In this document: positions 20,684 to 64,000 of the stretch, one piece after another
Layout: every line of letters starts with the position of its first letter
Numbering within the stretch: position 1 is the first letter of the stretch
NCBI GenBank assembly: GCA_035518815.1
Contig: DATIXG010000082.1
Coordinates: 65,398-129,397, forward strand
DNA: 64,000 nt
Reading direction: 5' to 3'
From: Gemmatimonadales bacterium
Lineage (GTDB): Bacteria > Gemmatimonadota > Gemmatimonadetes > Gemmatimonadales > GWC2-71-9
The notes under the pieces: generated by a model
Databases searched by the model: none
Seen by the model: the letters and a program-made list of their open reading frames with translations, nothing else
Told to the model about the DNA's origin: nothing
Program-made: the position numbers and the translations under genes

Positions 20684-20686
20684 GGC

Positions 20687-23157: not shown

Positions 23158-23158
23158 G

Positions 23159-26272: not shown

Positions 26273-26353
26273 GTGCTTCGCCCGCTCCTGCCCTGGAAAC
26301 GGGGCACTCATGGGAGCGAGGCACACATCGGACGATGGGGGACGGGGGCGTGC

Positions 26354-27304
26354 ATGACAGCGAACTCTACCCTCCCACCGGCAATCGTGCCAGTTAGATT
26401 CCCCGCCGCCTGCCGACGCCCGGCGGGCACCACAGGAGGACTCCTGACCACTACCACGCGCACGATCCACGTATCGCACAGCCCAGACGCGGACGACGCA
26501 TTCATGTTCTGGCCGCTTGCGGCTGGACGCATCGATAGCGGCGACCGCCGCTACGTCCATGAGCTGGCCGATATCGAGAGTCTGAACAGGCGCGCGTTGC
26601 GGGGCGAGCTCGAGGTGACTGCGGTGTCGTTGCATGCGTACGCCTACCTCACCGACCGCTATGCGCTGCTCGCGCACGGCGCGAGTATCGGCGACGGCTA
26701 CGGCCCTCGCGTGGTCGCCCGCACACCACCGCCTCCGGACCCGAGGACCGCCCTCGCGGGCCGCCTGGTAGCCGTCCCCGGCGAGCTAACCACCGCGTTC
26801 CTCGCGCTGCGCCTCTACCAGCCAGCGGTGCGACACGTGGTCGTCCCCTTCGATCAGATCGAAGACGTCGTCGCCCGAGGAGAGGCGGAGGCCGGGCTAC
26901 TCATTCACGAGGGCCAGCTCACCCATCAGGACCGGGGGCTGCACCTGTGGCTGGATACTGGCCAATGGTGGCGCGAGGAAGTCGGTCTCCCGCTCCCGCT
27001 CGGCGGGAACGTGGTCCGCCGCGACCTCGGCGCCGAGCTGACCCAAAACATTGCGCGCGACCTCAAAGCCAGCATCGAGTACGCGCTGTCCCATCGCGCC
27101 GAGGGCCTCGCCTACGCCCAGGGGTTCAGCCGCGGCCTGGACGCGGCGCGCACGGATCGCTTCATCGCGATGTACGTGAACGCATTCACCGTCGACTACG
27201 GAGCCGTGGGCCGCCAGGCTGTGCGGGAACTGCTCGAGCGCGGCGCGCGGGCGGGAATCCTGCCCCCGCCCAAGGACCTCACGTTCGTGAGTGCCGGGGC
27301 CTAG
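26354..27304 (+). CDS. MqnA/MqnD-family (futalosine-pathway menaquinone biosynthesis) protein
   Basis: IHVSHSPDADDAFMFWPLAAG... followed by a periplasmic-binding-like fold typical of the VitK2_biosynth family. The start is uncertain (ATG 26354 or GTG 26387). Confidence 0.65.
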   Translation: MTANSTLPPAIVPVRFPAACRRPAGTTGGLLTTTTRTIHVSHSPDADDAFMFWPLAAGRIDSGDRRYVHELADIESLNRRALRGELEVTAVSLHAYAYLTDRYALLAHGASIGDGYGPRVVARTPPPPDPRTALAGRLVAVPGELTTAFLALRLYQPAVRHVVVPFDQIEDVVARGEAEAGLLIHEGQLTHQDRGLHLWLDTGQWWREEVGLPLPLGGNVVRRDLGAELTQNIARDLKASIEYALSHRAEGLAYAQGFSRGLDAARTDRFIAMYVNAFTVDYGAVGRQAVRELLERGARAGILPPPKDLTFVSAGA

Positions 27305-50133: not shown

Positions 50134-51492
50134 CTACGGAAGTATCGTCACGCCACCGGGTGCCGCGATCACCCTGTTTCCGCGGACAAAATCAGTTCCC
50201 GTCCCAGCCGCGGTCATGCCGAGCATCTGAACCGCGTAGGGTGTGACCCCGAACTCGACGGCCGTGAACCACAGCCGGATCAGTGTCGGCGCGCCGCCGG
50301 CACCGATGGGATTCACGTCCCCGAACTGCAGCGCTCCCCCACCCGTCGAATCCGGGCTCACCGCCGGTTGCGTCGTGAAGAACCCGGGGCCCGCACTGCT
50401 GCTGTCGAACCGGACCATCCCCGCGTTCCATACGAGTCGCGCCTGATAGCTCTGCAGAAGCTCGGTCGGCACGGACTTCAGGTCCACCACTACGTCGACC
50501 GCAAACGGCTTCCCGATGTGCGCCGTGGCAAAGGGCTGGCCTCCGGCGAGGGGAACCACTATGGCGTCGCCCGATGGCGCTGGGTTGCTCACTGCCACGA
50601 CGGCGGAGTCGAGCGTCGCTCCAAAGGATGCCACGATTACGGCTGTTCCTCTCCCCTTGGCCGTGACGAGGCCGGTGGGGTCTACCGTGGCTACGCTGGG
50701 GTCGCCGCTCACCCAGCTCGCGCCCGGTACGCTCGCGGTGAACTGGATAGCGTTCGCCGGCGCCTGGGTCGTCAACGTCACGAAGCTGGGCGTGACGACC
50801 AAGCCCTGCGCCGTCACGTTCACGCGCAAGGTATCCACCGCGCCGCTCGTCGCGGCAATTACCTGCGCCAGGCCCCCGGTCGTGGCGGTCAGGACCGTGA
50901 TGAACCCGTCTGGCTTCACCGCGATGAGCTGCGGCGTGAGGTTCGTGAGGACAACAGGAACACCCGCGATAGCCTTGCGCGCCGAGTCCACGAGAATCCG
51001 CATCGCGAAGGCGCTGCCCGGATCGACGCTCGTGTCCTGGGGCTCGGCGGTGAGGGTGCATCCCGAGGACGGACCACAGGGTCCGACGTAGCTCACCGGC
51101 ACGTCCGCTACAGCAGTCGAGACGCCGGCGTTGACCGTCACGGTGTCCGCGCCCGTGTAGAGCACGGCCCCATCACTCGAGCGAATACCTTCCAGCAACA
51201 CCTCGAAGCGCTCCGTCGTCTCCGATAATGCCACTTTGACCGCTAGGTCGGCATTTCCCGCGGTGTCCACCGCCACCGTGTCGTCAAATACGACGGTCCC
51301 GGGGGGCGACGGCAGCCGCGTGACGCGGACGTGAAGCTCGTCCAGGTCACCGGTAAAGACGTCGAGCGTCTGCGAGGAAAACACCGGCGCGATCACGAGG
51401 CTCAAACGCCTGCCAGGGCCCATGGCGTCGGCGCACGCAAGCGCCGCAGTGACGGACAGCACGATGCCGAAGCGCCGCACTATCGGGTCCAT
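50134..51492 (-). CDS. Surface/secreted protein with Ig-like (Big_2-type) repeats and a cohesin-like C-terminal domain
   Basis: Signal/lipobox LSVTAALAC and a Big_2-like segment GDPSVATVDPTGLVTAKGRGTAVIVAS. 452 aa. Confidence 0.6.
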   Translation of the reverse strand: MDPIVRRFGIVLSVTAALACADAMGPGRRLSLVIAPVFSSQTLDVFTGDLDELHVRVTRLPSPPGTVVFDDTVAVDTAGNADLAVKVALSETTERFEVLLEGIRSSDGAVLYTGADTVTVNAGVSTAVADVPVSYVGPCGPSSGCTLTAEPQDTSVDPGSAFAMRILVDSARKAIAGVPVVLTNLTPQLIAVKPDGFITVLTATTGGLAQVIAATSGAVDTLRVNVTAQGLVVTPSFVTLTTQAPANAIQFTASVPGASWVSGDPSVATVDPTGLVTAKGRGTAVIVASFGATLDSAVVAVSNPAPSGDAIVVPLAGGQPFATAHIGKPFAVDVVVDLKSVPTELLQSYQARLVWNAGMVRFDSSSAGPGFFTTQPAVSPDSTGGGALQFGDVNPIGAGGAPTLIRLWFTAVEFGVTPYAVQMLGMTAAGTGTDFVRGNRVIAAPGGVTILP

Positions 51493-52592
51493 TCCAGCAT
51501 GGCGCTGAGCCGCGGGCCGACCAGGGAGATCGTGGAGCCTTGGTCCTTCAGATAGCCGAAGGGCACCTGTGCCTGAAACACGAGCGCGGCGGGTCCGCTC
51601 ACGCGATACCGCAGGTCGAGCCCTGGTCGGACAATCAACCCGAGAGGGGTGAGCGATGAGTCTTGCTCGGTCAGTTCGTGGCGCAGCTCGACCGACGGCG
51701 CCAGCGTGGCGCGGACGGAAAGCGGGTGCTCAACCCGCGCCCCCAACGCGAGCACGTTGCCGCGCGGGACCTCCACAACTGACGTCGCGGTTGTGTTGAA
51801 CTTGCGAGCGCGCATCCGGTACATGTCGAACCCGTAGAGGGACAGGCTGCTCCGTCCCATCGGCATGGACAGGTGCGAGTAGAACAGCACTCGGTCCCCG
51901 GAGACGCTCGGCGCACCCCCCGTCACCTCGTCGTGCTGACTCAGCGTGTACAGGAGCGCGACCCGCAGATAGTGCCCGCCACCGAGCGGCCCTTCGGCGC
52001 CAAGCCGGGCGCGGGCTTCGTTGCCTGGCTTCAGCTCGCCGCCGCCGGCCACTGGCTCGTAGCTCCCGCAATACCGCAGGCTCGCCCCACCGCCGACCGC
52101 CCACGAGCCCCACCGAGTCGCCGTTGCAACGCCACCCGTGACGCCGCCACCCGATCCGAAACTCGGCGTCGTGAAATCGAAGAGGTCGGTCGCGAGGATG
52201 GTGAAGAGCGGCAAGGTCGTGTCCGGCAGCGCCTTGGTCCCCGTCGGCAGCGTGCCGACGAAGGTCAGGAGCAGGCGTCCCGCTACCGCCGCGAACGTGG
52301 CTCGGACGTCAATGTCCGTCGGGCCGGATACGTTGCTCTCGGCGCCGTCCGAGGCGCGCACCGTGGCAGTCGCATACGCCCCCGCAACATCCAGACGGAG
52401 GCGGGATCCAAAGTCGTGCGACGCCGTCACGGGAATAGTCAGCTCGCTGACCCGATCGAACGCCAGCCCTGACCCGAACGAATAGGCTTCGAAAATCGGG
52501 CCAGTGCGCGCCGTGGTCCCAGGGGCGTCGGCTGGGACCTGCGCCGCGAGCGGCGCCGCCGCGAGCAGGGCAAGAACCACTGCCTGCTTCAC
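51480..52592 (-). CDS. Outer-membrane beta-barrel protein, unknown family
   Basis: Signal peptide MKQAVVLALLAAAPLAAQ and an alternating amphipathic strand pattern. Overlaps both neighbouring genes. Confidence 0.55.
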   Translation of the reverse strand: MKQAVVLALLAAAPLAAQVPADAPGTTARTGPIFEAYSFGSGLAFDRVSELTIPVTASHDFGSRLRLDVAGAYATATVRASDGAESNVSGPTDIDVRATFAAVAGRLLLTFVGTLPTGTKALPDTTLPLFTILATDLFDFTTPSFGSGGGVTGGVATATRWGSWAVGGGASLRYCGSYEPVAGGGELKPGNEARARLGAEGPLGGGHYLRVALLYTLSQHDEVTGGAPSVSGDRVLFYSHLSMPMGRSSLSLYGFDMYRMRARKFNTTATSVVEVPRGNVLALGARVEHPLSVRATLAPSVELRHELTEQDSSLTPLGLIVRPGLDLRYRVSGPAALVFQAQVPFGYLKDQGSTISLVGPRLSAMLEWTR

Positions 52593-53965
52593 CGCGGGCG
52601 CCTGAAGATGATGTGGATGATGCCGGACTCGGATACGACCGTCGGGCCCTGGCTCTCAGGCGTGACCTGGCGGGTGGTCAGATCGCCCCCGGTCCGACTC
52701 TCGCCGCCCACGGCGTTGAAGATGTCGCCCGTGCTGGGAGCCACGTCCCGCGATGTCGCGCCCAACACGCCGTGGAGGGGCGGCATGGCGGGGGTGGCGG
52801 CCGCCGCCGCCGCTGCGATTGTGAGCGCACTACCTCCCCCGGCGCTCGCCGAAGCCTGCTCGACCGCGGGGGCCACCTGCGCGGCCTCCTGGGCCTGTCT
52901 CGCGGACTGGAAGGTCGGGTCGGCGCGCAGCGCGGCGCCGAACGCACGCGTGGCTGCCGGGTAGTCCCCGCGATCCATCGCGTCGAGCCCGTCGCTGTAG
53001 GCCAGGAATGCCGCGAGGTTCTTCGGGCCCTCCCGCAGTATGCGCTCGCGCTCGGCCTGCGTCAGCTCGATGCCGAGTTGCCCGCTGAGGTCAATCACCA
53101 GCCGCTTCTCCAGATCGAGCAGATTCGCGAACGGCCCCGTCACCGGACTCACCGGACGCACCGCCCCGGTCACTATCACCACCGACGCGGACAGCTGCAC
53201 CACTCCGTGTGGCGGGATCGACGCCACGCCCTGCACCATTCTCTCTGCGCGCAGCAGGCGCCCCACGCGCGCCGCCGTCGCGGGATCGACCGACGAGCCC
53301 TCCGCCAGCTTCAGTTCGTCGACCAACGCACCGACTTGCACCCGCTCGAGCAGCCGGAGACTGCGAATGGCGGCGAGATCGGTGGTGATCAGCTCTGCGA
53401 GCCCGCGTGACAAGGGCTGCACGCTCGAGTCACCCGACACGACGAGCGGCAACACGGCCAACGTGCTCGGCTCTGGTGCCTGCTGGGCCAGCTCGGCTTC
53501 GTGAGCGAGCGCCGTTTGCGCGGTGTGCTCTGCGCCGGTGCGCAACGCGAGCTGCGCCTTGGCGAGCACCGCGGCGACCCCGCGCGCGTCGGGATGGGCT
53601 CCTGCGAACTCGTTGTAGGTCGTGACAGCCGCGTCGAAGCGCCCCGCTCGCTCCTGACAGGCCCCGATGACGAGTGGGCCGAGCGCGTCGTCGGGAGCCA
53701 GCGCGTTCGCCGCTTGGGCAACGACAATCGCTGTGTCGCAGCGATCGCCCGCAGCAAGGGCAGCGGCAAGGCGGAAGCGCGCCCCTAGGTCTTCAGGGTG
53801 CTCCCGCGTCGTGACGAGCAGGCTCGGAATCTCGGCCGGCGTGACGTCGGCTGGCCGCGGAGCGCGCGCACACGCGCCGCCCGCCACCAACAGCAGGCAA
53901 ATGAAGTGACGCAAGCTATCGATCCACTTGAAGTTGAGAGGCCGCCGCGCGACCACTCCCTCCAA
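52589..53965 (-). CDS. Lipoprotein with TPR-like helices flanking a CsgG/LpoB-like alpha-beta domain
   Basis: Lipobox LLVAGGAC. The central segment LAVLPLVVSGDSS..LSRGLAELITTDLAAIRSLRLLERVQVGALVDELKL is typical of CsgG/TolB-N-like lipoprotein modules. Confidence 0.5.
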   Translation of the reverse strand: MEGVVARRPLNFKWIDSLRHFICLLLVAGGACARAPRPADVTPAEIPSLLVTTREHPEDLGARFRLAAALAAGDRCDTAIVVAQAANALAPDDALGPLVIGACQERAGRFDAAVTTYNEFAGAHPDARGVAAVLAKAQLALRTGAEHTAQTALAHEAELAQQAPEPSTLAVLPLVVSGDSSVQPLSRGLAELITTDLAAIRSLRLLERVQVGALVDELKLAEGSSVDPATAARVGRLLRAERMVQGVASIPPHGVVQLSASVVIVTGAVRPVSPVTGPFANLLDLEKRLVIDLSGQLGIELTQAERERILREGPKNLAAFLAYSDGLDAMDRGDYPAATRAFGAALRADPTFQSARQAQEAAQVAPAVEQASASAGGGSALTIAAAAAAATPAMPPLHGVLGATSRDVAPSTGDIFNAVGGESRTGGDLTTRQVTPESQGPTVVSESGIIHIIFRRPR

Positions 53966-54062
53966 GCTACGCCCCGCTCATAGGACCCAGGTCACAGCGG
54001 GGCGTGCCTTGAGCTCGATTGCGGAACCTGCTGATTATACAGGGCTTAGGATGCTCTACCGG

Positions 54063-54386
54063 TCAGCGGTGGGTCTTCTTTTTCGCAGCCTTCTTGGGTT
54101 TCGACTTAGGCTTGGGGGCCCGGCCCACTTTACGCCGGCCCTTGAGCCCGGATTGCACGTCGGCCAGCACCCGGTCGCCCTCATCAGGCCCGATCAGGCC
54201 GCGGCGTACCGCGTACCGCACCAACTCCTCGGCATCCTCATAGGCGAACTCACCCTCGCCTGCAGCCGCTCGGATGGCTTTGACCAGGGCGTCCGCTACC
54301 GGGCTGCGCAGTACGCTCGCAATGCCCGGCAACGCCTCGAGCAGCGAAGAGATCTGCGACCCGCCGAGTTCGGCTGGCATCGACAA
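54063..54386 (-). CDS. Small protein with Lys/Pro-rich histone-H1-like C-terminal tail
   Basis: 107 aa ending GRRKVGRAPKPKSKPKKAAKKKTHR. Confidence 0.5.
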   Translation of the reverse strand: MSMPAELGGSQISSLLEALPGIASVLRSPVADALVKAIRAAAGEGEFAYEDAEELVRYAVRRGLIGPDEGDRVLADVQSGLKGRRKVGRAPKPKSKPKKAAKKKTHR

Positions 54387-54588
54387 GCTGCTCCGGCGTT
54401 TAGGGTCGCGCCAACCTACACCCCGCCCTAGACAGCGTCAAGAATTTGACCGGGTCAGGGGTAGCACCCAGCCAACCTCCTATCCCATAGAGAGATAGGC
54501 GTCCTGCCGGGAAGGTACACGGGAGCACCCAAGGCTTTGCTGCCCTGCCAGGTGTGGCTAGATTGGTGGTCGGAGGTGCACGGAAGAC

Positions 54589-54870
54589 GTGGGGCGACGG
54601 GGCATTAAAGAGTATCGGGCGCCTGAGGCGCTGGCGTTGATCGCGGCGGACCGAGAGCACTCCCCCTTGGTCTGTCCTTCCTGTGGGACGCGCTCCATCC
54701 AGCGTGTGCCGCGGCGGCGCGGCGAGAGAGCCGGCGTGATTCTCCAGTCGGAGCGCATCACGCTCACGTGCCAGACCTGCGGTCGCCACGCGGCATACAT
54801 CGAGCGCGGGCCAGAGCCTCCGCGTGACAGCACGATGGATCCGCACCCCGAGGTGTCCCGGGTCCGTTAG
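54589..54870 (+). CDS. Small zinc-ribbon protein (two CxxC pairs)
   Basis: GGAGG lies 12 nt upstream of GTG 54589. CPSCG...27 aa...CQTCG. Third-position G+C is about 80 percent (hand count). Confidence 0.4.
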
Positions 54871-54922
54871 CCGACCGCCCCAGCATTTCATTTGTCACTC
54901 AGGGAAGGAGCACGCGCGGCAC

Positions 54923-55138
54923 GTGGCAGGCGACGCCATACAAATGATGGGGACGATCAGCGAGGTCCTCCCCAACACCACCTTCCGCGTCAAGCTCGAG
55001 AACGGTCACGAAGTACTCGCCTACGTGAGTGGCAAGATGCGCAAGAACTACATCCGCATACTGCAAGGCGATCGGGTTGCGGTCGATCTGTCGCCCTACG
55101 ATCTCACGCGCGGCCGCATCACCTACCGCTACAAGTAA
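54923..55138 (+). CDS. infA: Translation initiation factor IF-1
   Basis: GTG 54923 with GAAGGAG 12 nt upstream. [58 protein letters not shown]. Confidence 0.9.
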
Positions 55139-55260
55139 CGCCCTGTTACGTGCACGAGCGACTGCACGGACGATCGGATGCACTCCGGAACTCTGGTCCT
55201 GCTTGCTGGTACTTGAAGCTCAGGATATTCTACCCGTGTTGCAGCATTCCCACGCGAACG

Positions 55261-55953
55261 GTGGTCTGGAAGGGAGGCACCATTTCAACACCACGGACGC
55301 GCGCGAGTGCCGCGGCGGTGGGTTGCGTCATTGCCGTCGGCCTGTTGGCGCCGGACTCAGGCGCCGCCCAGGCCGTGGACATTGGACTAGCCGCAGGCGT
55401 GTACTTCCCGATCGGCGCTCTCGTCCAGACAGGGTCGGAATCCCACCCGGCGACCTTCTTCCAGCAACGGCTCCAGATCACCCCCATGCTCTCGGGCAAT
55501 GCCGTGGTTTGGACCTCGGATCGGTTTGGCATCCAGGGCGCCGTGACGTATTGCCCGAGCACACTAGCGGTGCAGGACAGCTCCGGCATCAGCGACCATC
55601 ATAGCTCGGTCGTACTCGCCAGCATTCGCGCTCTCTATGCCTTCTCGCCGATGCCCTTCAAGCCCCCTCCGGGCAAGCGGGAGGCCCCCTGGTCCTTCTA
55701 TGTGGGGCTCGGGGCCGGCGTTGTGAGTCGCAGCGGGAACGTCTGGACCTACACGAGCGGCCTGGTTGCACCGGCGGCGGTGTTCGATGTCGGCGTCCGG
55801 ACCCCCCTTGGGGGTCGCAGCGTGTTGCGGATCAACATCGAGAACTACCTGTCGGTCGCCCAGTTCGACAAAGGACTGCCCACCGAGACCGAGGCGCGGC
55901 TGCATGGAGACTTGGCCTTCAACGCGACATTCGCCTACCGCCTCAAGCGATGA
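55261..55953 (+). CDS. Small outer-membrane beta-barrel protein (OmpW/OmpA-beta-like)
   Basis: Signal-like AAAVGCVIAVGLLAPDSGAAQA, alternating strands and a C-terminal FAYRLKR. The start is uncertain (GTG 55261 or 55318). Confidence 0.55.
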   Translation: MVWKGGTISTPRTRASAAAVGCVIAVGLLAPDSGAAQAVDIGLAAGVYFPIGALVQTGSESHPATFFQQRLQITPMLSGNAVVWTSDRFGIQGAVTYCPSTLAVQDSSGISDHHSSVVLASIRALYAFSPMPFKPPPGKREAPWSFYVGLGAGVVSRSGNVWTYTSGLVAPAAVFDVGVRTPLGGRSVLRINIENYLSVAQFDKGLPTETEARLHGDLAFNATFAYRLKR

Positions 55954-56402
55954 TGTCTACGCCCCGCGACCTTCCGCGCGTCACGCTGACTGCGGCGCTC
56001 ATGTTCACCACGTGCTTCCAGAGCAAGAAGTCATACGAGAACTGGAGCAGCTCAGTCCCCCCCGGGCGATTCAGGACCGTGGCGACCATCGCCGGAGGCG
56101 ATGGTCGTAACGATCTCCGCATGTCGGTCCAGGTGCGTAATTCCCTGCACAAGGCAGGGGTAAACGCCCTGAAGGTTTCCGGTCGCTGGGAAACCATCCC
56201 TCAGGCGATCAGCCAGGTCTGCTCCCCCAGCGCGCCGCAACCAGTCGACGGCATCGTGGTGGTGAAGTACGACTACTTGATCCTGTATGACTGCAAGACC
56301 AGCAAGGCGGCGTTCGAAATGCAGGGGGGAGCGGACGTGGGCCTCACCCAGATGACCGACCACCTGATCAAGTACATCAAGCGACCGGCACCCAACCCGT
56401 AG
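55950..56402 (+). CDS. Lipoprotein, unknown family (paralogue of 63455-63940)
   Basis: ATGA overlap with the upstream gene, lipobox-like FTTC. Shares the blocks ATIAGG..RN..RMS, GRW.T..QA, C.P, VDG and DC.....AF with the right-hand paralogue. Confidence 0.65.
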   Translation: MMSTPRDLPRVTLTAALMFTTCFQSKKSYENWSSSVPPGRFRTVATIAGGDGRNDLRMSVQVRNSLHKAGVNALKVSGRWETIPQAISQVCSPSAPQPVDGIVVVKYDYLILYDCKTSKAAFEMQGGADVGLTQMTDHLIKYIKRPAPNP

Positions 56403-56450
56403 TTTCCCGTCCGCGACAAGTCGGCTGCCAGCGACATTCCTGAATACACG

Positions 56451-56479
56451 AGAGGCCGGGAGCAACGCTCCCGGCCTCT
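56451..56479. terminator. Bidirectional hairpin (13-bp stem AGAGGCCGGGAGC/GCTCCCGGCCTCT, 3-nt loop)
   Basis: It lies between convergent genes and is followed by TTCAGGTT on the plus strand. Confidence 0.6.
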
Positions 56480-56517
56480 TCAGGTTGCGTACAACCCTGA
56501 GTACGCGAGCCGAATTC

Positions 56518-56976
56518 TTACGGCGAGACCGGCCCGATCGCGCCGGACGACAGACCGGCCGGGTCGCTGTCGCTATAGACCCTAACCGTGGCACCGTAGT
56601 TACGCAGCGTGCGGTACAGCACCGTATCCGTGACACCGGCGACGGAGCCGCTGGCCGCGCACGGAGCTGCCGCGCAAATCGTTCCCTTCGTGACCGTCCC
56701 CTGCAGAATCCGGATCAGGTTGACCGTGCCGTGACCGGCGGCCGTGACGGCATACGTGAACGTGAACGTCGTTCCGGAGCCGTTGATCGTGAAGGAATGA
56801 CGGGCCGCGGTATCCGCGGGGTTCTTGTGTGGGGTCACGTTGTTACCGGCCGCGACCGCCTGAAAAGCAGTGATCACGTCATCCGGGGAATCCGGCCCCG
56901 TACACGCAACCCCGACGACGAGCGCGCCTGCCATCACTGTGCCTACCAGCGCGGCGTGTTTAACGGACGAGCGCAT
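56518..56976 (-). CDS. Secreted protein, tentatively CHRD-like
   Basis: ATG 56974-56976 with AAGGAGG upstream. Signal/lipobox VVGVAC. The mature part loosely fits the CHRD pattern (..GHGTVNLIRILQG....VRVYSDSDPAGLSSGAIG). Confidence 0.6.
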   Translation of the reverse strand: MRSSVKHAALVGTVMAGALVVGVACTGPDSPDDVITAFQAVAAGNNVTPHKNPADTAARHSFTINGSGTTFTFTYAVTAAGHGTVNLIRILQGTVTKGTICAAAPCAASGSVAGVTDTVLYRTLRNYGATVRVYSDSDPAGLSSGAIGPVSP

Positions 56977-57121
56977 CCTAGTCCTCCTTGGCGTTTGTTG
57001 AGAGTGTTGCCAACTCCTGGTGCTCCATCCCGGCCCACCTCGGAGGCAATACAGTACCACGTGCTGGGCCGCTTGTCGAGGACCCCGGGGAACTTCGCGG
57101 CCGCTAGTCCTATCGTATGTC

Positions 57122-57145
57122 CATACCACCCGATCGGGTGGTATG
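57122..57145. promoter_or_regulatory. Perfect 24-bp palindrome CATACCACCCGATCGGGTGGTATG
   Basis: It lies in the 288-bp divergent region between the CHRD-like gene and the first YceI-like gene, and is followed by CCGGGTTTTT. Confidence 0.45.
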
Positions 57146-57264
57146 CCGGGTTTTTGCCCTCTCGCCGGGCTTGCGCGAAGCCAAAAGCCGCGGTTATTTC
57201 CATGGTCGCCCGTCGTTGCATAACGCACCGTTGCACTCACCACAGTTGCAGGAGCCACCGAAAC

Positions 57265-58035
57265 ATGAGTCGTTATTCGCTGTTGCTGGGATGCCTTGTC
57301 CTGGCCGCGCCGGCGGCCGCCCGGGCCCAAACACGCTGGACCGTTGATTCCAAGAGCAGTTTGGCCTGGTGGCAGATGAGCCCAAACCTGAACCACCTCT
57401 GGGCCACCACGTGCCCTGGCGATTCCTCGTGGCGCCCCGGCGAAGGCCGGAGCACCGGCTGGTACATCAATCCGAGACTCAAGCTCCCCAAGACGGGGTA
57501 CGCCGGCGTCGACGACACGATCCACGTCCCGTTGTATCCGCGCACGACCGTCTACCCGCTCTGCGTCGAAGCTCTCCGCGGCGAGATCGTCGTGCCTGAC
57601 ACGGTGCACTGGCGCGGTGTACATGGCAGGGTCACGGTACTGGGAGACGCGCTCATCACAGGCGAGATGATGCGCGACGTGTTGATGCATCAGGTCATGC
57701 AGACGTCTTCGTTCCCGGAAGTCGTGTTCACGATCGACAGCGTTACGAACCCAAGGCAGGACGGCGACACGCTGCGCGCGACCGCGGTCGGCTCCCTGAC
57801 TGTGCGCGGCATCGTGACGCCGACGACCGCCCAGGTGAGGGCGTTCCATGATGCGGGTGGCATGCGCGTCCTGGCGAAGTTCCGGATGCCCGCGACGTCG
57901 CTTCTCGAGCTCACGCCGCGTATCCATAATTTGGGCCTTGGCGTCAGTACCAACATCTGGCACGACCTCTTCATGGGAACCGACCTCGTGCTGCGCCCCG
58001 AAGGGTCGAAACCAGCTACACAAGGGAGTGACTGA
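57265..58035 (+). CDS. YceI-like periplasmic protein with ~50-aa Cys-containing insertion, copy 1
   Basis: GGAG lies 10 nt upstream of ATG 57265; signal peptide ...AAARAQ. YceI-type blocks WTVDSKSSLAWWQ, MRDVLMHQVMQTSSFPEVVFTIDS and GSLTVRGIVTP. Confidence 0.7.
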   Translation: MSRYSLLLGCLVLAAPAAARAQTRWTVDSKSSLAWWQMSPNLNHLWATTCPGDSSWRPGEGRSTGWYINPRLKLPKTGYAGVDDTIHVPLYPRTTVYPLCVEALRGEIVVPDTVHWRGVHGRVTVLGDALITGEMMRDVLMHQVMQTSSFPEVVFTIDSVTNPRQDGDTLRATAVGSLTVRGIVTPTTAQVRAFHDAGGMRVLAKFRMPATSLLELTPRIHNLGLGVSTNIWHDLFMGTDLVLRPEGSKPATQGSD

Positions 58036-58038
58036 TCC

Positions 58039-58803
58039 ATGAGGCGTCACGCCACGATAGTGCTGGGGAGCCTGCTTCTGGCTGCCCCGGCCGCTGCGCC
58101 AGCGCAAACCCGCTGGACTGTCGATACGAAGAGCAGCCTCGCTTGGTGGCAGGTGAGCCCGCACCTCAATCACTTGTGGGCCACCACGTGTCCTGGCGAT
58201 TCGTCCTGGCGCCCAGGCGAGGGTCGCAGCAGTGGCTGGTACATCAACCCGAAGCTCAAGCCGCCGAAGACCGGATATGCCAACGTCGACGACACCGTCC
58301 ACGTGCCGATGTACCCGCGCACGACCGTCTACCCGCTGTGCGTCGAGGCAGTGAAGGGAGAAGTGACGACGCCCGACACCGTCCATTGGCGCGGTGTACA
58401 TGGCAAGGTCACGGTCGTGGGAGACGCGCTGATCACGGGCGAGATGATGCGTGACGTGCTGGCGCACCAGGTCATGCAAACATCCCAATATCCCGACATT
58501 GTCTATACCGTCGACAGTCTCACAAACGTCGGGCACAAGGGCGATACCCTCACCGCCACGGCGGTCGGAAGCCTCAGCTTCCGTATGATCCCTTACCCGA
58601 TGACGGCGGTGGTTAAGGCGTTTCACGACGCCGGCGGTATGCGCGTCCTCGCGAAGATGCGCATGCCCGCTCACAACCTGCTCGACATGACCCCGAAGCT
58701 CCATTACCTCGGACTCGGCGTGAACACGAACATCTGGCATGATTTCTTCATGGGCGTCGACGTCGTATTTCGTCCCATGCAGTCGGGCGCCAGCGGGAAA
58801 TAG
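58039..58803 (+). CDS. YceI-like periplasmic protein, copy 2 (tandem duplicate)
   Basis: By eye about three-quarters identical to copy 1, with many synonymous nucleotide differences. AAGGGAG upstream. Confidence 0.7.
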   Translation: MRRHATIVLGSLLLAAPAAAPAQTRWTVDTKSSLAWWQVSPHLNHLWATTCPGDSSWRPGEGRSSGWYINPKLKPPKTGYANVDDTVHVPMYPRTTVYPLCVEAVKGEVTTPDTVHWRGVHGKVTVVGDALITGEMMRDVLAHQVMQTSQYPDIVYTVDSLTNVGHKGDTLTATAVGSLSFRMIPYPMTAVVKAFHDAGGMRVLAKMRMPAHNLLDMTPKLHYLGLGVNTNIWHDFFMGVDVVFRPMQSGASGK

Positions 58804-58842
58804 AGGCGGATCCCTAGCAGCATTGGCATCAGCCTCCGGCAC

Positions 58843-58878
58843 GGGCGTCGCGATCTGCGGCGCCCGTTTCGTCTTTCT
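58843..58878 (+). terminator. Terminator after the YceI tandem
   Basis: Hairpin GGGCGTCGCG-ATCT-GCGGCGCCC followed by GTTTCGTCTTTCTC. Confidence 0.55.
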
Positions 58879-58929
58879 CACCCTCCGCATCGGTTGACAC
58901 GTCCCGGCGAGCACGGCGAACGTTAGGGC

Positions 58930-59589
58930 GTGATCTCCGCACTGCTGGGAGCGCTGTTGCTGAACCCGCCCTGGAGCCCCCGCGTCCTTTCCCGTTTCGA
59001 TGTCGCGAAGGCCGAGTGGCTCATCCGTAATCGCCTCCCCTGTCTCGGCTGCCACGAGCTCGGCGGTGAGGGGGGCCGCATTGGCCCTAGCCTCTCCCAG
59101 CTCAAAGGACGGCCGTTCCCCGAGCGCGTGTACGAGCAGATCCGCGATCCCAAGGGCGGGGTCATGCCCCGCGTGCCCATGAGCGAAACCACGCTTGATC
59201 TGATCGCCAGCTATCTGGTTCAACGAGACCCAAGCCCGGCCCCGGCCAGCGTGCCACCCCCGGCCGTCGAATCGAGCCGGGACGTGACCGAGGATCTGTA
59301 CGCTCGGCATTGCTCCCCCTGTCACGGCGTGAAGGGGGCGGGGGACGGCTACAACGCGCCTTTCCTACCCGTACGGCCGACTGCTCACGCCGACAAGGCC
59401 TACATGTCCCGCCGGTCGGACGACGCGCTGTTCGACGCGATCTACGCGGGCGGCTACGTTATGAACCGCAGCAATCGCATGCCACCGTTCGGACAGACGC
59501 TAGCCCGTGAGCAGATCTGGTCTCTCGTGCACTATCTCCGGGTGTTGTGCGGCTGTGAGGGACCCGCGTGGTCGCTGGATAACCATTGA
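58930..59589 (+). CDS. Dihaem c-type cytochrome
   Basis: Two CxxCH motifs (CLGCH, CSPCH), each followed by a candidate Met ligand region (VMPRVPM, RMPPFG). GTG start directly after an in-frame TAG. Confidence 0.75.
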   Translation: MISALLGALLLNPPWSPRVLSRFDVAKAEWLIRNRLPCLGCHELGGEGGRIGPSLSQLKGRPFPERVYEQIRDPKGGVMPRVPMSETTLDLIASYLVQRDPSPAPASVPPPAVESSRDVTEDLYARHCSPCHGVKGAGDGYNAPFLPVRPTAHADKAYMSRRSDDALFDAIYAGGYVMNRSNRMPPFGQTLAREQIWSLVHYLRVLCGCEGPAWSLDNH

Positions 59590-61946
59590 GCAAGAAGAAA
59601 GCGCGCGCGCAACCCGCGGTCGAGGCGGGACGCACCGGGGCTCGGCGCTTCGGCCGGCGCAGCCTGTTTGCCGTCGCCGTAATCATGGCCGCGGCGGCCG
59701 CCGTGGCTGGCCGAGCCCTCTACGATCGCGCCGGCCGCAATCTCAAGCTTCCCCCTCCCCCTCCCAGCGACATGACGGCGCCGGCTGAGACGACCGTCGC
59801 TTACGGTGATTTTGTTGGGTCCGAGGCATGTGCCTCGTGCCACCCATCGGAGTACAGGTCGTGGTCCAGCTCGACGCATGGCAAGGCCGGTGGGCCGCCG
59901 ACCCCGGAGCGCGTCAAGGGTCCTTTCGACGGCCGGCCCATCCACTTCCGCGACGCCACGGTCACGCCCTCTCGGAGCCAGAGTGGCGGGTTCATTTTCA
60001 CGGTGGTGCAGGAGCAGCGGCCGGCGGTCGTATACCGCGTCGAAGCGGTCGTCGGCGGCGGCTTCATGGCTGGTGGCGGCACCCAGGCAGCCTTCGGACG
60101 GTTCCCCGACGGAACGCTGCGATTCCTCCCCTTCGACTATTCGCCGGCGGAGCATGCTTGGTTCTGCCAGCTGCGGCCAGGCAACAGGGGGTGGGTACCC
60201 ATTACACCTGCGCTGGCACTCGCTGACTGCGATGCCTGGCCGCCCACACGCATCCTGGGCAGTTCTGAGCGGTTCCAGAGCTGCCAGCAGTGCCACGGCA
60301 GCCAGATCGAGGTTGCGTTCGATTCCGCGTCCAAGCACTACGACACCCGCTTTTCGACCCTCGCGATCAATTGTGAATCCTGCCACGGCCCCGGACGGAG
60401 GCACGTCGAGCTCGCCCGATCAGGCACGCTCCCGACTGCTCAGGACATTGGCATGCGGTCCCTCGCAGCCCTCACGAAGGATCAGTCGCTCGAGGTCTGC
60501 TTTCAATGCCACGCCGTGAAGGCGGCGCTCGAGCCGGGATACCTGCCCGGGAAGGAGCGCGATCGACACTTCGCCCTCAAGCTTCCGATTCTGCTCGACA
60601 CGATCTACTTCGCCGACGGTCGCACACGCGTGTTCGCGTACCAAGAGGGGCACCTTTCGAGCGATTGCTACCTGAACGGGTCCATGACATGTGTGGACTG
60701 CCATGACCCGCACTCCCAGCACTATCGCGACATCAACGGAGTAGCCCTGCCGGGCAGGTTCGACGACGGCCAATGCGTCGATTGTCATGCCAGCAAGACG
60801 CAGCCGATCGGCCGGCACACGCATCACGGAGCGACCTCGGCTGGCAGCCGCTGCGTGTCGTGCCATATGCCTTACCTACAGGAGCCGAGCGTCGGCCCGC
60901 GGATCCGGTATGCGCGGTCCGATCATACCATCCCCATCCCCCGGCCGTCCTACGATGCCCGGATCGGAATCGAGAACGCCTGCGTCGGCTGTCATCGCGA
61001 TCGCACAGTCCAGGAGCTCGACGACCAAGTGGCGAAGTGGTACGGGGCCTTGAAGCCGCAGGCGGCCATGGTCGCCGCAGTCCTCGCCGCAGACGCCGCG
61101 AGCGACCCCACCGTCGCAGCGAGGACCGTTCTGTCCGCAGGCGGGAGCCATCCCATGGCTCAAGTCGCCGGGTTGGGATTGGTGCTGAAGCAATACACGA
61201 AACCCGACGTGGCCGCGCTCGACGCGGAGACCACCAAGCGCCTAGAGCAGTGGTCGCAGGACTCCGATCTGGACGTATCGGCACTGGCGCTGGCATCGCT
61301 CCACCAGCTACGTGGCACCGACCCGCAGATCCGCCGGTTTCTTGCGGGTGCGTTGCGCCGATTGGGGCCGCGCGACGGCTTGGTTCGCTCGCGGTGGGCC
61401 TGGATTCTGCGGGTGCGTGGGGAAGCCCTCCTCACGGCCGGGGACCCGCGGAGCGCGCTCGTCACCTACAACAAGGCCCTAGAGGTGACGCCCGACGATC
61501 CTGCGGTCTGGAGGAGCCTCGGCGTCGTGTACACGCGCCTCCACGACTACCCCAGCGCTATCGAGCGTTTCCAACACAGCCTGTCACTCCGCCCCAGGCA
61601 GCCACAAGTGCTTGTAGAGCTGGGGTTTGCGCTCTCGCAGCAAGGGCAGGCTGATAGTGCTATCACCGCCTACCGGCAAGCCATCGATCTCGATCCGTGG
61701 GACCCGGCGGCCTACGCCAATCTCGGGGTCGCCGCCCTGCGCCGTGGAGCCATCCGGCCCGCCATTGAAGCCCTCCAGCGCGCCGTACAGCTCAACCCCG
61801 GCCTCGCCGAAGCCCAGTTCGCTCTGGCGAGCGCCTATGGCCAACTCGGCGATACCAAGCGAGCTTTAGATGCGCTGCAGCGCGGCCTTGAGTTCGACCC
61901 CAACAACGCCGCGGCGCGTCGCCTCCTCGAAGCAAATCGTCGCTAA
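59586..61946 (+). CDS. Membrane-anchored octahaem c-type cytochrome fused to C-terminal TPR repeats
   Basis: Eight CxxCH motifs (CASCH, CQQCH, CESCH, CFQCH, CVDCH x2, CVSCH, CVGCH), an N-terminal TM anchor and C-terminal TPR units (e.g. AYRQAIDLDPWDPAAYANLG). 4-nt overlap upstream. Confidence 0.8.
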   Translation: MSKKKARAQPAVEAGRTGARRFGRRSLFAVAVIMAAAAAVAGRALYDRAGRNLKLPPPPPSDMTAPAETTVAYGDFVGSEACASCHPSEYRSWSSSTHGKAGGPPTPERVKGPFDGRPIHFRDATVTPSRSQSGGFIFTVVQEQRPAVVYRVEAVVGGGFMAGGGTQAAFGRFPDGTLRFLPFDYSPAEHAWFCQLRPGNRGWVPITPALALADCDAWPPTRILGSSERFQSCQQCHGSQIEVAFDSASKHYDTRFSTLAINCESCHGPGRRHVELARSGTLPTAQDIGMRSLAALTKDQSLEVCFQCHAVKAALEPGYLPGKERDRHFALKLPILLDTIYFADGRTRVFAYQEGHLSSDCYLNGSMTCVDCHDPHSQHYRDINGVALPGRFDDGQCVDCHASKTQPIGRHTHHGATSAGSRCVSCHMPYLQEPSVGPRIRYARSDHTIPIPRPSYDARIGIENACVGCHRDRTVQELDDQVAKWYGALKPQAAMVAAVLAADAASDPTVAARTVLSAGGSHPMAQVAGLGLVLKQYTKPDVAALDAETTKRLEQWSQDSDLDVSALALASLHQLRGTDPQIRRFLAGALRRLGPRDGLVRSRWAWILRVRGEALLTAGDPRSALVTYNKALEVTPDDPAVWRSLGVVYTRLHDYPSAIERFQHSLSLRPRQPQVLVELGFALSQQGQADSAITAYRQAIDLDPWDPAAYANLGVAALRRGAIRPAIEALQRAVQLNPGLAEAQFALASAYGQLGDTKRALDALQRGLEFDPNNAAARRLLEANRR

Positions 61947-62088
61947 GGAACGGCAACGACACGGGGGGCCAGGTAACGTCTTGGCACGTTGCGAGTTGCA
62001 ACGCTGCGTGCACACTGCCAGCTTGCGAGGCCACCAAAATGGTGGTTACTTCGTGCTTGGCTTGGAATCTACCGACGGAGGTCGCCGT

Positions 62089-62484
62089 ATGCGTGCACTA
62101 CTGGGTTGTACATTGGTCGTGACCGCACTTTCGAGCGTCGCCTGCCACACCATGGCGCCCGCAACGCTGGACCAATTGGGCACGATGAAGCCCTCACGGG
62201 CGTGGGTCACGCTGGGTGACAAGTCCGTGGTGGAGATTTCGGGCCCCCAGATCATGGGCGACACTCTGGTAGGATACGTGAATGGGGTATACCAGGAGCT
62301 CCCCGCCGCTACGGTAAAAAGTGTGACCGTACAGAAGACGTCCACCGGCAAAACGGTGGCCCTGGTCGTGGCAAGCACCGTCGCGTTCGGCGGGTTCGCC
62401 TACCTGATCACCTCGGCGGCGTCTAACCAGGACGACAAGGGTCCGACGGTAGAGTGCCAAGAGAACCCCGATCGGTGTATGTAG
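62089..62484 (+). CDS. Small lipoprotein with C-terminal TM segment
   Basis: GGAGG lies 7 nt upstream of ATG 62089. Lipobox LSSVAC and a hydrophobic VALVVASTVAFGGFAYLI. Confidence 0.6.
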   Translation: MRALLGCTLVVTALSSVACHTMAPATLDQLGTMKPSRAWVTLGDKSVVEISGPQIMGDTLVGYVNGVYQELPAATVKSVTVQKTSTGKTVALVVASTVAFGGFAYLITSAASNQDDKGPTVECQENPDRCM

Positions 62485-62536
62485 CATGTCGACGGCCGTC
62501 AATCACCTCTCGGATGACGAAGGAGGTAGGCATACC

Positions 62537-63322
62537 ATGATCTCTCTGCGGGCCTGGCGACGGGTCGCAATCATGGGCTTCGCTTGCGTATTGGGCGCGC
62601 CCGTGGCTGCGCGAGCGCAGGTCCACTGGAAAGTCAATTCGAAGGCCAGCTTGGCGTGGTGGCAGATCGATCCGAACATGAACCACCTGTGGGCCACCAC
62701 CTGCCCGGAAGAGCCTTCGTGGCGCCCTGGGGAAGGACGCAGCGGCGGCTGGTCAACCAACGAGGCCATGCAGGCCCGGGTGGGACACGGGTTCGCCGCC
62801 ATCTCCGATACCGTCCACGTACCCCTCTATCCGCGGCGTCGCGTCCGGTTCCTCTGCACCGAGGCCGTGAAGGGCGATTTCACGTTCCCGGATACCGTGC
62901 ACTGGCGTGGCGGGCATGGGAGGCTCACGATCGACTCCAAGAAGATCACGAGCGGTGAAAACCTGCGCGATGAGTACGCGCGCGACGGTGTGCTGGCGAC
63001 CGCGAACTTCCCGGAGCTCACGTTTGTCCTGGACAGCGTGACCGATGTGAAGCGCGCGGGAGACACGCTCAGGGGCAAGGGATGGGGTGTCTTCACCCTG
63101 CGTGGCGTTCCGAAGGTGGTGGCCACCGACGTTAAGACCTTCCCGGAAGCGGGTGGCCTGCGGGTCATCGGTAAGTTCGGCATCCCGGCCAAGGCGCTCG
63201 CCACCGACTACGGAGTTACCAGGCGCACCTTGGGTTTGGGCGTATACATGGGGATCTGGAAGACGCTCTTCATGGGCGTGGACCTGCTTCTCGAACCTGA
63301 ACAGCCACCCGGCGCCAACTAG
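62537..63322 (+). CDS. YceI-like periplasmic protein, copy 3 (diverged)
   Basis: AGGAGG lies 10 nt upstream of ATG 62537. Keeps SLAWWQ, NHLWATTCP, SWRPGEGRS, DTVHVPLYPR and PDTVHWRG.HG. Roughly 45 percent identical to copies 1 and 2 by eye. Confidence 0.7.
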   Translation: MISLRAWRRVAIMGFACVLGAPVAARAQVHWKVNSKASLAWWQIDPNMNHLWATTCPEEPSWRPGEGRSGGWSTNEAMQARVGHGFAAISDTVHVPLYPRRRVRFLCTEAVKGDFTFPDTVHWRGGHGRLTIDSKKITSGENLRDEYARDGVLATANFPELTFVLDSVTDVKRAGDTLRGKGWGVFTLRGVPKVVATDVKTFPEAGGLRVIGKFGIPAKALATDYGVTRRTLGLGVYMGIWKTLFMGVDLLLEPEQPPGAN

Positions 63323-63357
63323 CCAAACCGGGCAGCGGGTAGAGCGAGGAAGCATTC

Positions 63358-63386
63358 GCGGGGCAGCCCCCACAGGGCTGCCCCGC
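63358..63386. terminator. Hairpin terminator (12-bp stem GCGGGGCAGCCC/GGGCTGCCCCGC)
   Basis: It lies between convergent genes, with TTCATTTC downstream on the plus strand. Confidence 0.6.
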
Positions 63387-63454
63387 TTCATTTCACCAGA
63401 CCCGATCGGAATGCGTGTCGGAAGTCGGAGGAAGGCGGGCGGAACCGGCTCGGC

Positions 63455-63940
63455 CTAGTGGTCGGTGGCTGGCGCCGACTCGCCTCGCAGGTAGTGAAAG
63501 AGCCGCTTGGTCATCTCCTGCATGCCGGCGCCCCGCTCGGGAGCGCCTTCGACGGTGAAAGCCGTCTGATGCGACGTGCAGTCCATAAGCTCCAGGCGGT
63601 TGTACGCGACGAACAGAACTCCATCCACATCACCGGGCTCGCAGATCTCCTTCACGGCCTGGGCCGGCGTATCCCAGCGGCCGGCCCGCGCCACGCCCTT
63701 CCAGCCGCTGTCACTGAGCTCTTTGCGAACGGTCGCGGACATCCGGATCTCGTTTCTACTCGCGCCCCCGGCAATCGTCGCGATGACCTTGAACTTGGTT
63801 CCCCCGATGGTGGGGCTCGGGTGCTCGACAGCTTCCTTGCCGGTCCACAGGCAACCCCCCAGCCCGAGCAGCGCGCTGGCCACGAGCGCCGCGCCCGCCT
63901 GCCGGGCACGCAATGGCGACACGAAACCCACAGGGCTCAC
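63455..63940 (-). CDS. Lipoprotein, unknown family (paralogue of 55950-56402)
   Basis: GTG start, lipobox LGLGGC. See the left-hand paralogue for the shared blocks. Confidence 0.65.
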   Translation of the reverse strand: MSPVGFVSPLRARQAGAALVASALLGLGGCLWTGKEAVEHPSPTIGGTKFKVIATIAGGASRNEIRMSATVRKELSDSGWKGVARAGRWDTPAQAVKEICEPGDVDGVLFVAYNRLELMDCTSHQTAFTVEGAPERGAGMQEMTKRLFHYLRGESAPATDH

Positions 63941-64000
63941 GCGACCCTCTCTCTCCGATTTGTTGGTTATAGACGCACAGTAGGGGCACGGTATGCTCCC

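Follow-up and report, generated by a model that had tools for sequence, protein, structure and literature searches.

A candidate envelope electron-transfer gene cluster of Gemmatimonadales with multihaem cytochromes, YceI-fold proteins and a Cyc2-like neighbour

What is the joint task, if there is one, of three YceI-like proteins, a dihaem and an octahaem cytochrome c and a set of small lipoproteins that are encoded side by side? The question is raised by the last 9 kb of a stretch of DNA from a Gemmatimonadales bacterium (GenBank assembly GCA_035518815.1, contig DATIXG010000082.1, positions 65,398 to 129,397), which is 64,000 nt long and is called the window below; coordinates are positions in the window, and names such as L001 or L017 denote the related loci that were compared. 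Gemmatimonadota are abundant in soils, and their respiratory and metal-cycling biology is largely unknown. An earlier note on this DNA had described nine of the genes as a periplasmic redox and lipid-handling locus bracketed by two inverted lipoproteins.

The locus is read here as an envelope electron-transfer cluster that reaches from the outer membrane into the periplasm, is related to Cyc2 pathways and consists of three layers; this reading is held with middling confidence, the case for it about balancing the doubts. The first layer would be a redox core, made up of a translationally coupled, c4-like dihaem cytochrome and an octahaem cytochrome that is anchored in the inner membrane and fused to a tetratricopeptide repeat domain (octahaem-TPR). 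The second would be an outer-membrane module consisting of a small beta-barrel (OMPb), the PelC-like lipoproteins LipA and LipA', a Cyc2-like cytochrome-porin and a monohaem cytochrome c. Accessory proteins specific to Gemmatimonadota would form the third: the YceI-fold proteins Yce1, Yce2 and Yce3, a small lipoprotein (sLip) and protein X, a degenerate CHRD lipoprotein. Gene content and protein families bear out the redox character that had been proposed for the locus, and since it adjoins Cyc2-like and ccm genes the cluster most likely moves electrons across the cell envelope.

The cytochromes and the Cyc2-like gene

Haem-binding motifs were counted as two CxxCH in the dihaem protein and eight in the octahaem protein, as the earlier note had it. 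Pfam and NCBIfam scans placed two cytochrome c domains in the former. The latter has a transmembrane (TM) anchor near its N terminus (residues 22–46) and, at its C terminus, an ordinary TPR array of about 180 residues; signal peptides, lipoboxes and TM segments were judged by eye throughout. The haem domain of the octahaem protein matched Pfam Cytochrom_C552 and Cytochrome_C554 above their cut-offs. The PDB search was limited to this domain, a full-length query being swamped by TPR matches, and gave OcwA (6i5b) as the best solved relative (E=6e-12), aligned over three blocks that contain the first haem motif, the second and third, and the last two haems. MccA (6e-4), c554 (8e-3) and NrfA (0.02–0.04) were weaker relatives. 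Two other assignments were dropped: a CcmI-like apocytochrome chaperone, as the TPR_CcmH_CycH match of the TPR domain (50 bits) did not exceed its generic TPR matches, and an MtrAB/PCC-type (porin-cytochrome) conduit, as an MtrB-like porin is absent and the DmsE and MtrC matches in Pfam and NCBIfam are partial and far below cut-offs.

Members of the octahaem-TPR family number more than 1800 and come from several phyla, KSB1, Armatimonadota and Bacteroidota among them, and, judged by sequence, the cytochrome pair is kept across several phyla at 45–60% identity. Three contigs that do not belong to the YceI-carrying lineages, one of them labelled KSB1, lack a YceI-like gene; in them a cytochrome c gene precedes the octahaem-TPR gene, and the C-terminal part of its product is 48–51% identical to the dihaem protein. 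The pair also stands alone in L122, a Gemmatimonadales contig with the same infA neighbourhood. Since the pair is so widespread without YceI genes, the YceI-like proteins are a lineage-specific addition; the idea that they are an obligatory partner of the cytochromes had to be given up.

Two observations were made beside the pair. In L122 (12390–22370) it is followed by lepB, a PD40 gene, tkt and haem biosynthesis genes (HemY-like, ferrochelatase, URO-D, HemQ-like), and further downstream by haem O synthase and cox subunits, a neighbourhood devoted to haem and respiration. In L033 (3068–6637), L121 (5600–9038) and L017, the pair has as its direct neighbour an insertion with genes for a pyrroloquinoline quinone (PQQ)-dependent dehydrogenase, a SoxE/sulfocyanin-like cupredoxin and a porin; these insertions fit a periplasmic redox theme.

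The relatives of the haem domain, together with the conservation of the pair on its own in several phyla, suggest another account, in which the pair acts as an enzyme of the periplasm, after the manner of NrfA, MccA, HAO and OcwA, for instance one that reduces or oxidises nitrite, hydroxylamine, sulfite or a comparable small molecule, with the dihaem protein as electron partner; the YceI-like, CHRD, LipA and Cyc2-like genes would be mere neighbours with a common requirement for export and for the ccm genes. The precedent is OcwA, a reductase of nitrite and hydroxylamine with catalytic haems of the high-spin type (PMC6703420). By this analogy a catalytic role of the octahaem protein is a serious rival. 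No CxxCK or other catalytic-haem signature was identified in it, however, all eight motifs being CxxCH (distal ligands not analysed), and the module stays with YceI-like, LipA, OMPb and Cyc2-like genes both in the separate chromosomal context of L120 and in rearranged gene orders. The enzyme account is regarded as unlikely.

Electron transfer across the envelope, the preferred reading, draws on a gene just beyond the end of the window. The Cyc2-like gene lies on the minus strand outside the window, its stop codon at about position 64068, with LipA' downstream of it; public contigs identical to the window reach 129 bp into this gene and give its last 42 codons (...NLQWHFLY). Public gene calls make two of its orthologues 425 and 434 aa long; others, counted from the likely start, have about 450 aa, and the last residue is aromatic. 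Eleven orthologues are complete at the N terminus, and each of these has a signal peptide and one CxxCH only, within the motif VPxF[A/V/T]RQTGLxCxQCH; where the published Cyc2 motif has A, they have A, V or T. Four criteria define Cyc2 (Keffer et al. 2021, PMC8406198): a single CxxCH, a PXFAR[Q/K][T/Y] motif upstream of it that is described as occurring in Cyc2 only, a protein length of at least 365 aa, and a porin beta-barrel that follows the cytochrome domain. The single CxxCH, the upstream motif and the length were all found in the orthologues, and the neighbour gene is thus, by its motif, like that of a Cyc2-type fused monohaem cytochrome-porin.

Beyond the Cyc2-like gene, the relatives encode a monohaem cytochrome c, ccmAB, a further cytochrome c, ccmCEFGH, lepB, a PD40 protein and tkt. 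It had been remarked that the window contains no ccm genes; this is true solely because the window ends before the place at which they are found in relatives. With an outer-membrane cytochrome and a ccm operon just outside the window, the emphasis moves from lipid or quinone handling, as first suggested, to trans-envelope electron transfer. In described Cyc2 pathways, electrons pass from Cyc2 to the dihaem periplasmic carrier Cyc1 or to other cytochromes, and on to a terminal oxidase (PMC7029218).

By analogy with these pathways, the cluster is proposed to transfer electrons across the envelope, Fe(II) being the substrate for which there is a precedent. The scheme that follows is our inference as regards the substrate, the direction in which electrons flow and whatever part the YceI-like, CHRD and sLip proteins may play. 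The Cyc2-like porin-cytochrome would exchange electrons with an external or periplasmic substrate, and the soluble mono- and dihaem cytochromes, with the anchored octahaem-TPR protein, would connect it with the aerobic chain, passing the electrons in one direction or the other. Organisation of the complex may fall to the TPR domain and to the LipA proteins, as ring-type lipoproteins, and the YceI-like proteins may carry a hydrophobic cofactor or ligand (an isoprenoid quinone or similar) for the chain.

YceI-like proteins, lipoproteins and recurrence of the cluster

The three YceI-like paralogues reported earlier are present, Yce2 and Yce3 being 74% and 50% identical to Yce1, and Yce1 is 100% identical to an NCBI entry annotated as a YceI family protein from a Gemmatimonadales metagenome-assembled genome (MAG). 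Yce1 and Yce3 score above the cut-off of Pfam YceI (PF04264; 23.7 bits) and Yce2 below it (12.4 bits). An AlphaFold2 (AF2) model of Yce1 was built on 58 homologues (predicted local distance difference test score, pLDDT, 76.9) and compared with the PDB by using Foldseek. The top 17 matches were all YceI-family structures (E 1e-7 to 1e-4; target-normalised TM scores 0.5–0.8), including TT1927b, E. coli YceI, BcnA/B, HP1286 and Cj YceI, and the model has the eight-stranded lipocalin-like beta-barrel of the family. From the Pfam scores and the Foldseek result the YceI assignment is sound; it withstood both the profile search, with two of three copies above the cut-off, and the fold search. Past the first strands (about residues 45–103) the proteins have an insertion of about 55 residues, which is of low confidence in the AlphaFold model. 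Of the 31 columns that are invariant throughout the family, 18 fall in the stretch 32–100 that contains it, and two of these are Cys, which may bridge the insertion. Since this family-specific insertion, and not the barrel, is most conserved, the function may differ from that of classical YceI.

Motif-based scans (30 genome loci, and 79 metagenome loci retained out of 222 confirmed matches) found the YceI-like family solely in Gemmatimonadota and in MAGs only. It is strongly expanded there: 88 loci contain 136 copies, and a single locus has as many as five. A gene for a TonB-dependent receptor was seen beside YceI-like genes in L020, L023, L024, L026, L029, L105 and L113. In L020, L023 and L029 the receptor is followed by DUF4331, a TPR protein, a HupE/UreJ transporter and an ECF-sigma-like gene (assigned by sequence only), a set that looks like a metal-uptake cluster.

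Solved YceI-family members have polyisoprenoid or ubiquinone-8 bound; ubiquinone-8 is the ligand of the YceI-like domain X158, which in Cellvibrio Cbp2D forms one polypeptide with c-type cytochrome domains (PMC8981238), and an electron-transfer chain of YceJ and YceI has been proposed in Shewanella (PMC8981235). These reports, the confirmed YceI fold and the position of YceI-like genes directly after octahaem-TPR in several arrangements are what speaks for a self-contained periplasmic module, close to the one first proposed, in which isoprenoid quinones or another lipid are bound by YceI-like lipocalins, from which the multihaem cytochromes receive electrons or lipid. Periplasmic electron transfer would then be coupled to the quinone pool without a membrane quinol dehydrogenase, and the outer membrane would not be involved. 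To them is added a menaquinone gene in the window (26015–27304, plus strand; VitK2_biosynth, MqnA/MqnD type of the futalosine pathway, E=2e-67), by which the organism probably uses menaquinone and which is thus relevant to quinone-binding ideas on the YceI-like proteins. The conservation of the insertion rather than the barrel tells against such a module, as does the retention of the cytochrome pair in phyla without YceI, and the conserved OMPb, LipA and Cyc2-like genes are left unaccounted for. It is held to be quite improbable. A slim chance is given to a variant in which the YceI-like proteins with their invariant insertion, the sLip anchor and the CHRD protein act as a periplasmic carrier of menaquinone or haem that links the inner membrane to the Cyc2-type cytochrome and the octahaem-TPR protein. 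The carrier would then be a shuttle with a protein-borne lipid cofactor, and a soluble link in trans-envelope electron transfer or in cytochrome biogenesis.

Direct Pfam and NCBIfam scans gave nothing significant for LipA, LipA', X, sLip, OMPb and the Cyc2-like protein. X had been labelled CHRD-like; Pfam gave no CHRD (PF07452) match even at E<=10, and phmmer and profile searches of PDB sequences found nothing. Homology was recovered by profile-profile comparison. The X family comprises 10 representative clusters among 1.84 billion proteins, one of its members (P0284) matches CHRD with 38.9 bits over the full model, and hhalign related the family to bona fide CHRD lipoproteins (60.3 bits in Pfam) with a probability of 98.8% (E=1e-16). 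The conserved CHRD histidines (HIH ... H..GEIRGQ) are absent, with ILQ and SDSDPAGLSSGAIG in their place, and X is thus, from its alignment, a degenerate CHRD lipoprotein that has lost them. Canonical CHRD lipoproteins are encoded at the equivalent position, beside a YceI-like gene, in L017, L052 and L081, and probably in L002 and L105. In sLip, an N-terminal signal with a Cys is combined with a C-terminal TM helix (residues 89–110).

LipA and LipA' are inverted paralogues, as had been noted (35% identity, E=1e-29), and belong to a small set of "hypothetical" lipoproteins with a conserved Cys pair. The AF2 model of LipA' (core pLDDT >90) has PelC as its best fold match (E=4.5e-5, TM score about 0.5, identity 12–13%), with anticodon-binding-domain folds scoring nearly as high. 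OMPb, which gave a weak match to NCBIfam OMP_myx_plus, is a tenth exported gene that was absent from the earlier list and is part of the cluster; its orthologues adjoin LipA in eight of the 48 loci described below. Loci of the window type have LipA' after the Cyc2-like gene and another pair, OMPb-LipA, at the opposite end, and in L009, L014 and L105 a cytochrome c gene, the Cyc2-like gene, OMPb and LipA follow one another on one strand. With OMPb-LipA entering from the left and Cyc2-like-LipA' from the right, the lipoproteins are the tails of two gene sets that read inward. The paralogy and inverted orientation described in the earlier note hold; the bracketing is better explained in this way.

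The cluster recurs across Gemmatimonadota in several gene orders, so that the lack of synteny in other genomes by which the earlier note could have been refuted was not observed. The full order of the window type is found in L001, L033, L034 and L040, with YceI-like proteins 62–77% identical to Yce1, and L017 has a rearranged, inverted version whose YceI-like protein is about 47% identical. The octahaem-TPR gene is directly followed by YceI-like genes in L050, L055, L056 and L113. In L120 the cluster has another chromosomal context (pdxJ, LPG synthase): dihaem, octahaem-TPR, YceI-like, an open reading frame (ORF) and a second YceI-like gene on one strand, and farther on LipA, OMPb and the Cyc2-like gene on the other (about 50% identity). 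Neighbours within 6 kb of a YceI-like gene were counted in 48 non-redundant loci of at least 8 kb. The commonest was sLip (20 loci), then any CxxCH protein (19), octahaem-TPR, Cyc2-like and monohaem cytochrome genes (10 each), OMPb and TonB-dependent receptor (8 each), and LipA and ccmA (7 each). The cluster is thus composite, with a cytochrome pair found in many phyla, YceI-like, sLip and CHRD genes that come here from Gemmatimonadota only, and an outer-membrane module.

Several points weigh against electron transfer across the envelope as the joint task. Among KSB1-type and other genomes, and in L122, the cytochrome pair occurs without YceI-like, Cyc2-like or LipA genes, so that coupling among the three layers is not obligatory. 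Many YceI-like copies lie in unrelated contexts (Mla, GGDEF, and TonB-receptor/metal-uptake genes), and no quinol dehydrogenase or cytochrome b was found in the cluster. The N terminus of the Cyc2-like protein is known from relatives and not from the genome of the window itself, its putative Cyc2 assignment relies on the motif and not on the FeGenie hidden Markov models or on structure, and Cyc2 homologues also occur in organisms not known for iron oxidation (PMC7029218). CxxCH is enriched in ORFs near YceI-like genes (37 of 395 ORFs at up to 6 kb, against 1 of 188 at greater distances; p=7e-6 by Fisher's test) in a comparison of loci that are not phylogenetically independent. Moreover, much of the synteny is that of one neighbourhood (infA ... 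ccm ... lepB-tkt-hem-cox) and could reflect vertical inheritance instead of selection for linkage.

This last point leads to the view that there is no functional unit at all, only a variable hot-spot between infA and ccm/lepB/tkt/hem/cox in which genes for exported proteins and expanded families of paralogues accumulate and whose resemblances come from shared ancestry. The content of the interval from infA to lepB-tkt does vary, from the cytochrome pair only (L122) through TonB receptor and metal-uptake genes (L024, L029) to three to five YceI-like copies elsewhere; hairpins divide the region into separate transcription units, and its GC content is slightly below that of the rest of the window (63–66% at 54001–64000 against 66–70%, a mild dip that spans the whole cluster). 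L120, however, retains the module outside that neighbourhood, L017 retains components in another order and orientation at about 47% YceI-like identity, and certain pairings recur in many loci (sLip with YceI-like, CHRD with YceI-like, OMPb-LipA-Cyc2-like, dihaem with octahaem). The recurrence of the window order, L017, the adjacency of octahaem-TPR and YceI-like genes in the L050 group and L120 argue for real linkage, and little credence is given to the hot-spot view.

Features of the cluster and other genes of the window

The features of the cluster are collected in Table 1. All nine ORFs listed in the earlier note, and the hairpins it had placed at 56451, 58843 and 63358, were found where it had put them, and independent gene calls on the same DNA agree with the ORFs.

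Table 1. Genes, hairpins and palindrome of the cluster, by position in the window
Feature	Position	Strand	Basis or remark
OMPb, small outer-membrane beta-barrel	55261 or 55318 to 55953	+	ORF, gene calls, intergenic analysis
LipA, lipoprotein, paralogue of LipA'	55950..56402	+	ORF, alignment
Hairpin between convergent LipA and X	56451..56479		Perfect 13-bp stem, 3-nt loop, T-run absent; direct reading
X, degenerate CHRD-domain lipoprotein (predicted)	56518..56976	-	Profile-profile comparison
Palindrome, 10-bp arms, CATACCACCC GATC GGGTGGTATG	57122..57145		In 288-bp divergent X/Yce1 intergenic region
Yce1, YceI-fold protein	57265..58035	+	Pfam 26.2 bits, AF2 model and Foldseek
Yce2, YceI-fold paralogue	58039..58803	+	3 nt downstream of Yce1; 74% identity to Yce1
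Terminator-like hairpin after Yce2	58841..58867	+	Terminator scan
Dihaem c-type cytochrome, c4-like, two Cytochrome_CBB3/Cytochrom_C domains	58930..59589	+	Pfam, haem motifs
Octahaem cytochrome c-TPR fusion, membrane-anchored	59586..61946	+	4-nt overlap with dihaem stop
sLip, small lipoprotein with C-terminal TM helix	62089..62484	+	ORF, sequence reading
Yce3, YceI-fold paralogue	62537..63322	+	Pfam 43.3 bits
GC-rich hairpin, 12 pairs (11 G-C), between convergent Yce3 and LipA'	63358..63386		Terminator scan
LipA', lipoprotein with putative PelC-like alpha/beta fold	63455..63940	-	Downstream of Cyc2-like gene

Export signals, which had been claimed for all products, are present in every one of them; that of the dihaem protein, a short and weakly hydrophobic N terminus, is the weakest, and dihaem orthologues are eight residues longer at this end. 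Yce1, Yce2 and Yce3 have signal peptides that end in ARA|Q or APA|Q. Lipobox-type Cys residues were read in LipA' (LGGC) and X (VGVAC), and Cys22 of LipA aligns with the family-invariant lipobox Cys. The start of OMPb is uncertain: position 55261 gives a full signal peptide that ends in AQA|VD, and the public gene call starts at 55318. Its end overlaps the start of LipA by 4 nt.

Intergenic distances and strand changes suggest five putative transcription units: OMPb-LipA (plus strand), X (minus), Yce1-Yce2 (plus), dihaem-octahaem-TPR, possibly with sLip-Yce3 (plus), and LipA' (minus). No sigma-70-like promoter was found at 54–64 kb, and an Rfam scan of 53.5–64 kb (E<=1) returned a single chance match (IGF2 IRES, 20 bits), a riboswitch or small RNA not being evident. 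The palindrome between X and Yce1 is followed by a T-run, is unique in the window (0.01 expected) and could be an operator or a hairpin. It is kept solely in near-identical relatives (L031, L032, L039) and so gives no evidence for a regulatory site.

Upstream of the cluster, on the minus strand (50134–53965), lies a trio of genes that is kept in many related loci and encodes an Ig-like (Big/Ig_Eae) surface protein, a 370-aa protein without a family match, which from its sequence resembles an outer-membrane beta-barrel, and a 455-aa lipoprotein with TPR and CsgG-like parts; the trio looks like a separate secretion or assembly module without a described function. Next to it (54063–54386, minus strand), a protein of 105–107 aa with a lysine-rich, histone-H1-like C-terminal tail (…KPKSKPKKAAKKK) and no Pfam family is encoded, which is kept near infA in several related loci. 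Farther away, 17516–23199 (minus strand) holds a resistance-nodulation-division (RND) efflux system, with an AcrB-family pump (E=2e-277), an OEP outer-membrane factor and, between them, a probable membrane-fusion gene. A run of genes at 3201–11556 (minus strand) resembles complex I and Mrp antiporters (a NuoD-like 49-kDa subunit, a NuoH-like subunit and three Proton_antipo_M subunits), and its make-up is that of group-4 membrane-bound hydrogenase-type or Mrp-type complexes. The strong AT skew of 0.22–0.33 at 4–12 kb is probably caused by these hydrophobic minus-strand genes.

Novelty and comparison with known systems

The earlier note had not recognised the gene combination as a described system, and full-text literature searches found no published description of it, nor any that combines YceI with multihaem cytochromes, Cyc2 or CHRD in this way. 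Homologues of Cyc2 in Gemmatimonadota have appeared as survey matches only, without genomic context (PMC11316326, PMC9769843). The cluster is accordingly classed as a variant of Cyc2-type or periplasmic cytochrome electron-transfer clusters with an accessory set that is undescribed and a cross-phylum cytochrome pair that is uncharacterised. It supplies the survey matches with a genomic context, namely defined and recurrent partner genes around a Cyc2-like porin-cytochrome, and it draws attention to the dihaem/octahaem-TPR pair, which has more than 1800 homologues in several phyla and no assigned function. After Cbp2D it is also the second natural example in which proteins with the YceI fold go together with c-type cytochromes, by which the role of YceI proteins, a long-standing question, would become more testable. 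The motif-based genome scan gave MAGs only and no cultured carrier.

Four groups of known systems invite comparison. With the superfamily of OcwA, MccA, c554 and NrfA, the octahaem domain shares blocks of haem motifs, OcwA being nearest. It differs in having eight haems where OcwA has nine, in its N-terminal anchor and in its C-terminal TPR domain, and, unlike in that superfamily, a dihaem-type cytochrome c gene is always found upstream in the contigs compared. LipA' resembles PelC, which forms the outer-membrane ring of the Pel exporter, in that it is also a lipoprotein and is also encoded beside an outer-membrane barrel or porin. There are no Pel genes here, however, and the Cys pair is specific to the LipA family as against PelC and the related TolB-N/CsgG-type alpha/beta lipoprotein domains.

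The Yce proteins have the same eight-stranded barrel as the YceI/TT1927b/BcnA family (PF04264), two copies being above the Pfam threshold, and differ from classical YceI in the conserved insertion of about 55 residues with its Cys pair. They occur here as tandem or triple paralogues, and their partners are sLip and CHRD lipoproteins and not cytochrome b561 (YceJ). Cbp2D is a precedent for YceI-like domains that act with c-type cytochromes.

Nearest to the cluster as a whole are the Cyc2 pathways of Acidithiobacillus, Zetaproteobacteria and Gallionellaceae. As in these, a gene for a monohaem cytochrome-porin with PxFxRQT...CxxCH adjoins the cluster, and mono- and dihaem periplasmic cytochromes c are present in the cluster or its relatives; the cupredoxin genes of some relatives recall the rusticyanin and sulfocyanin of Cyc2-type pathways. 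The likeness to Cyc2 is one of motif only, and the host is presumably a heterotrophic soil Gemmatimonadales known as a MAG. The described Cyc2 pathways, in turn, have neither an octahaem-TPR protein nor YceI-like paralogues, a CHRD lipoprotein, sLip, OMPb or PelC-like lipoproteins, all of which belong to the cluster described here.

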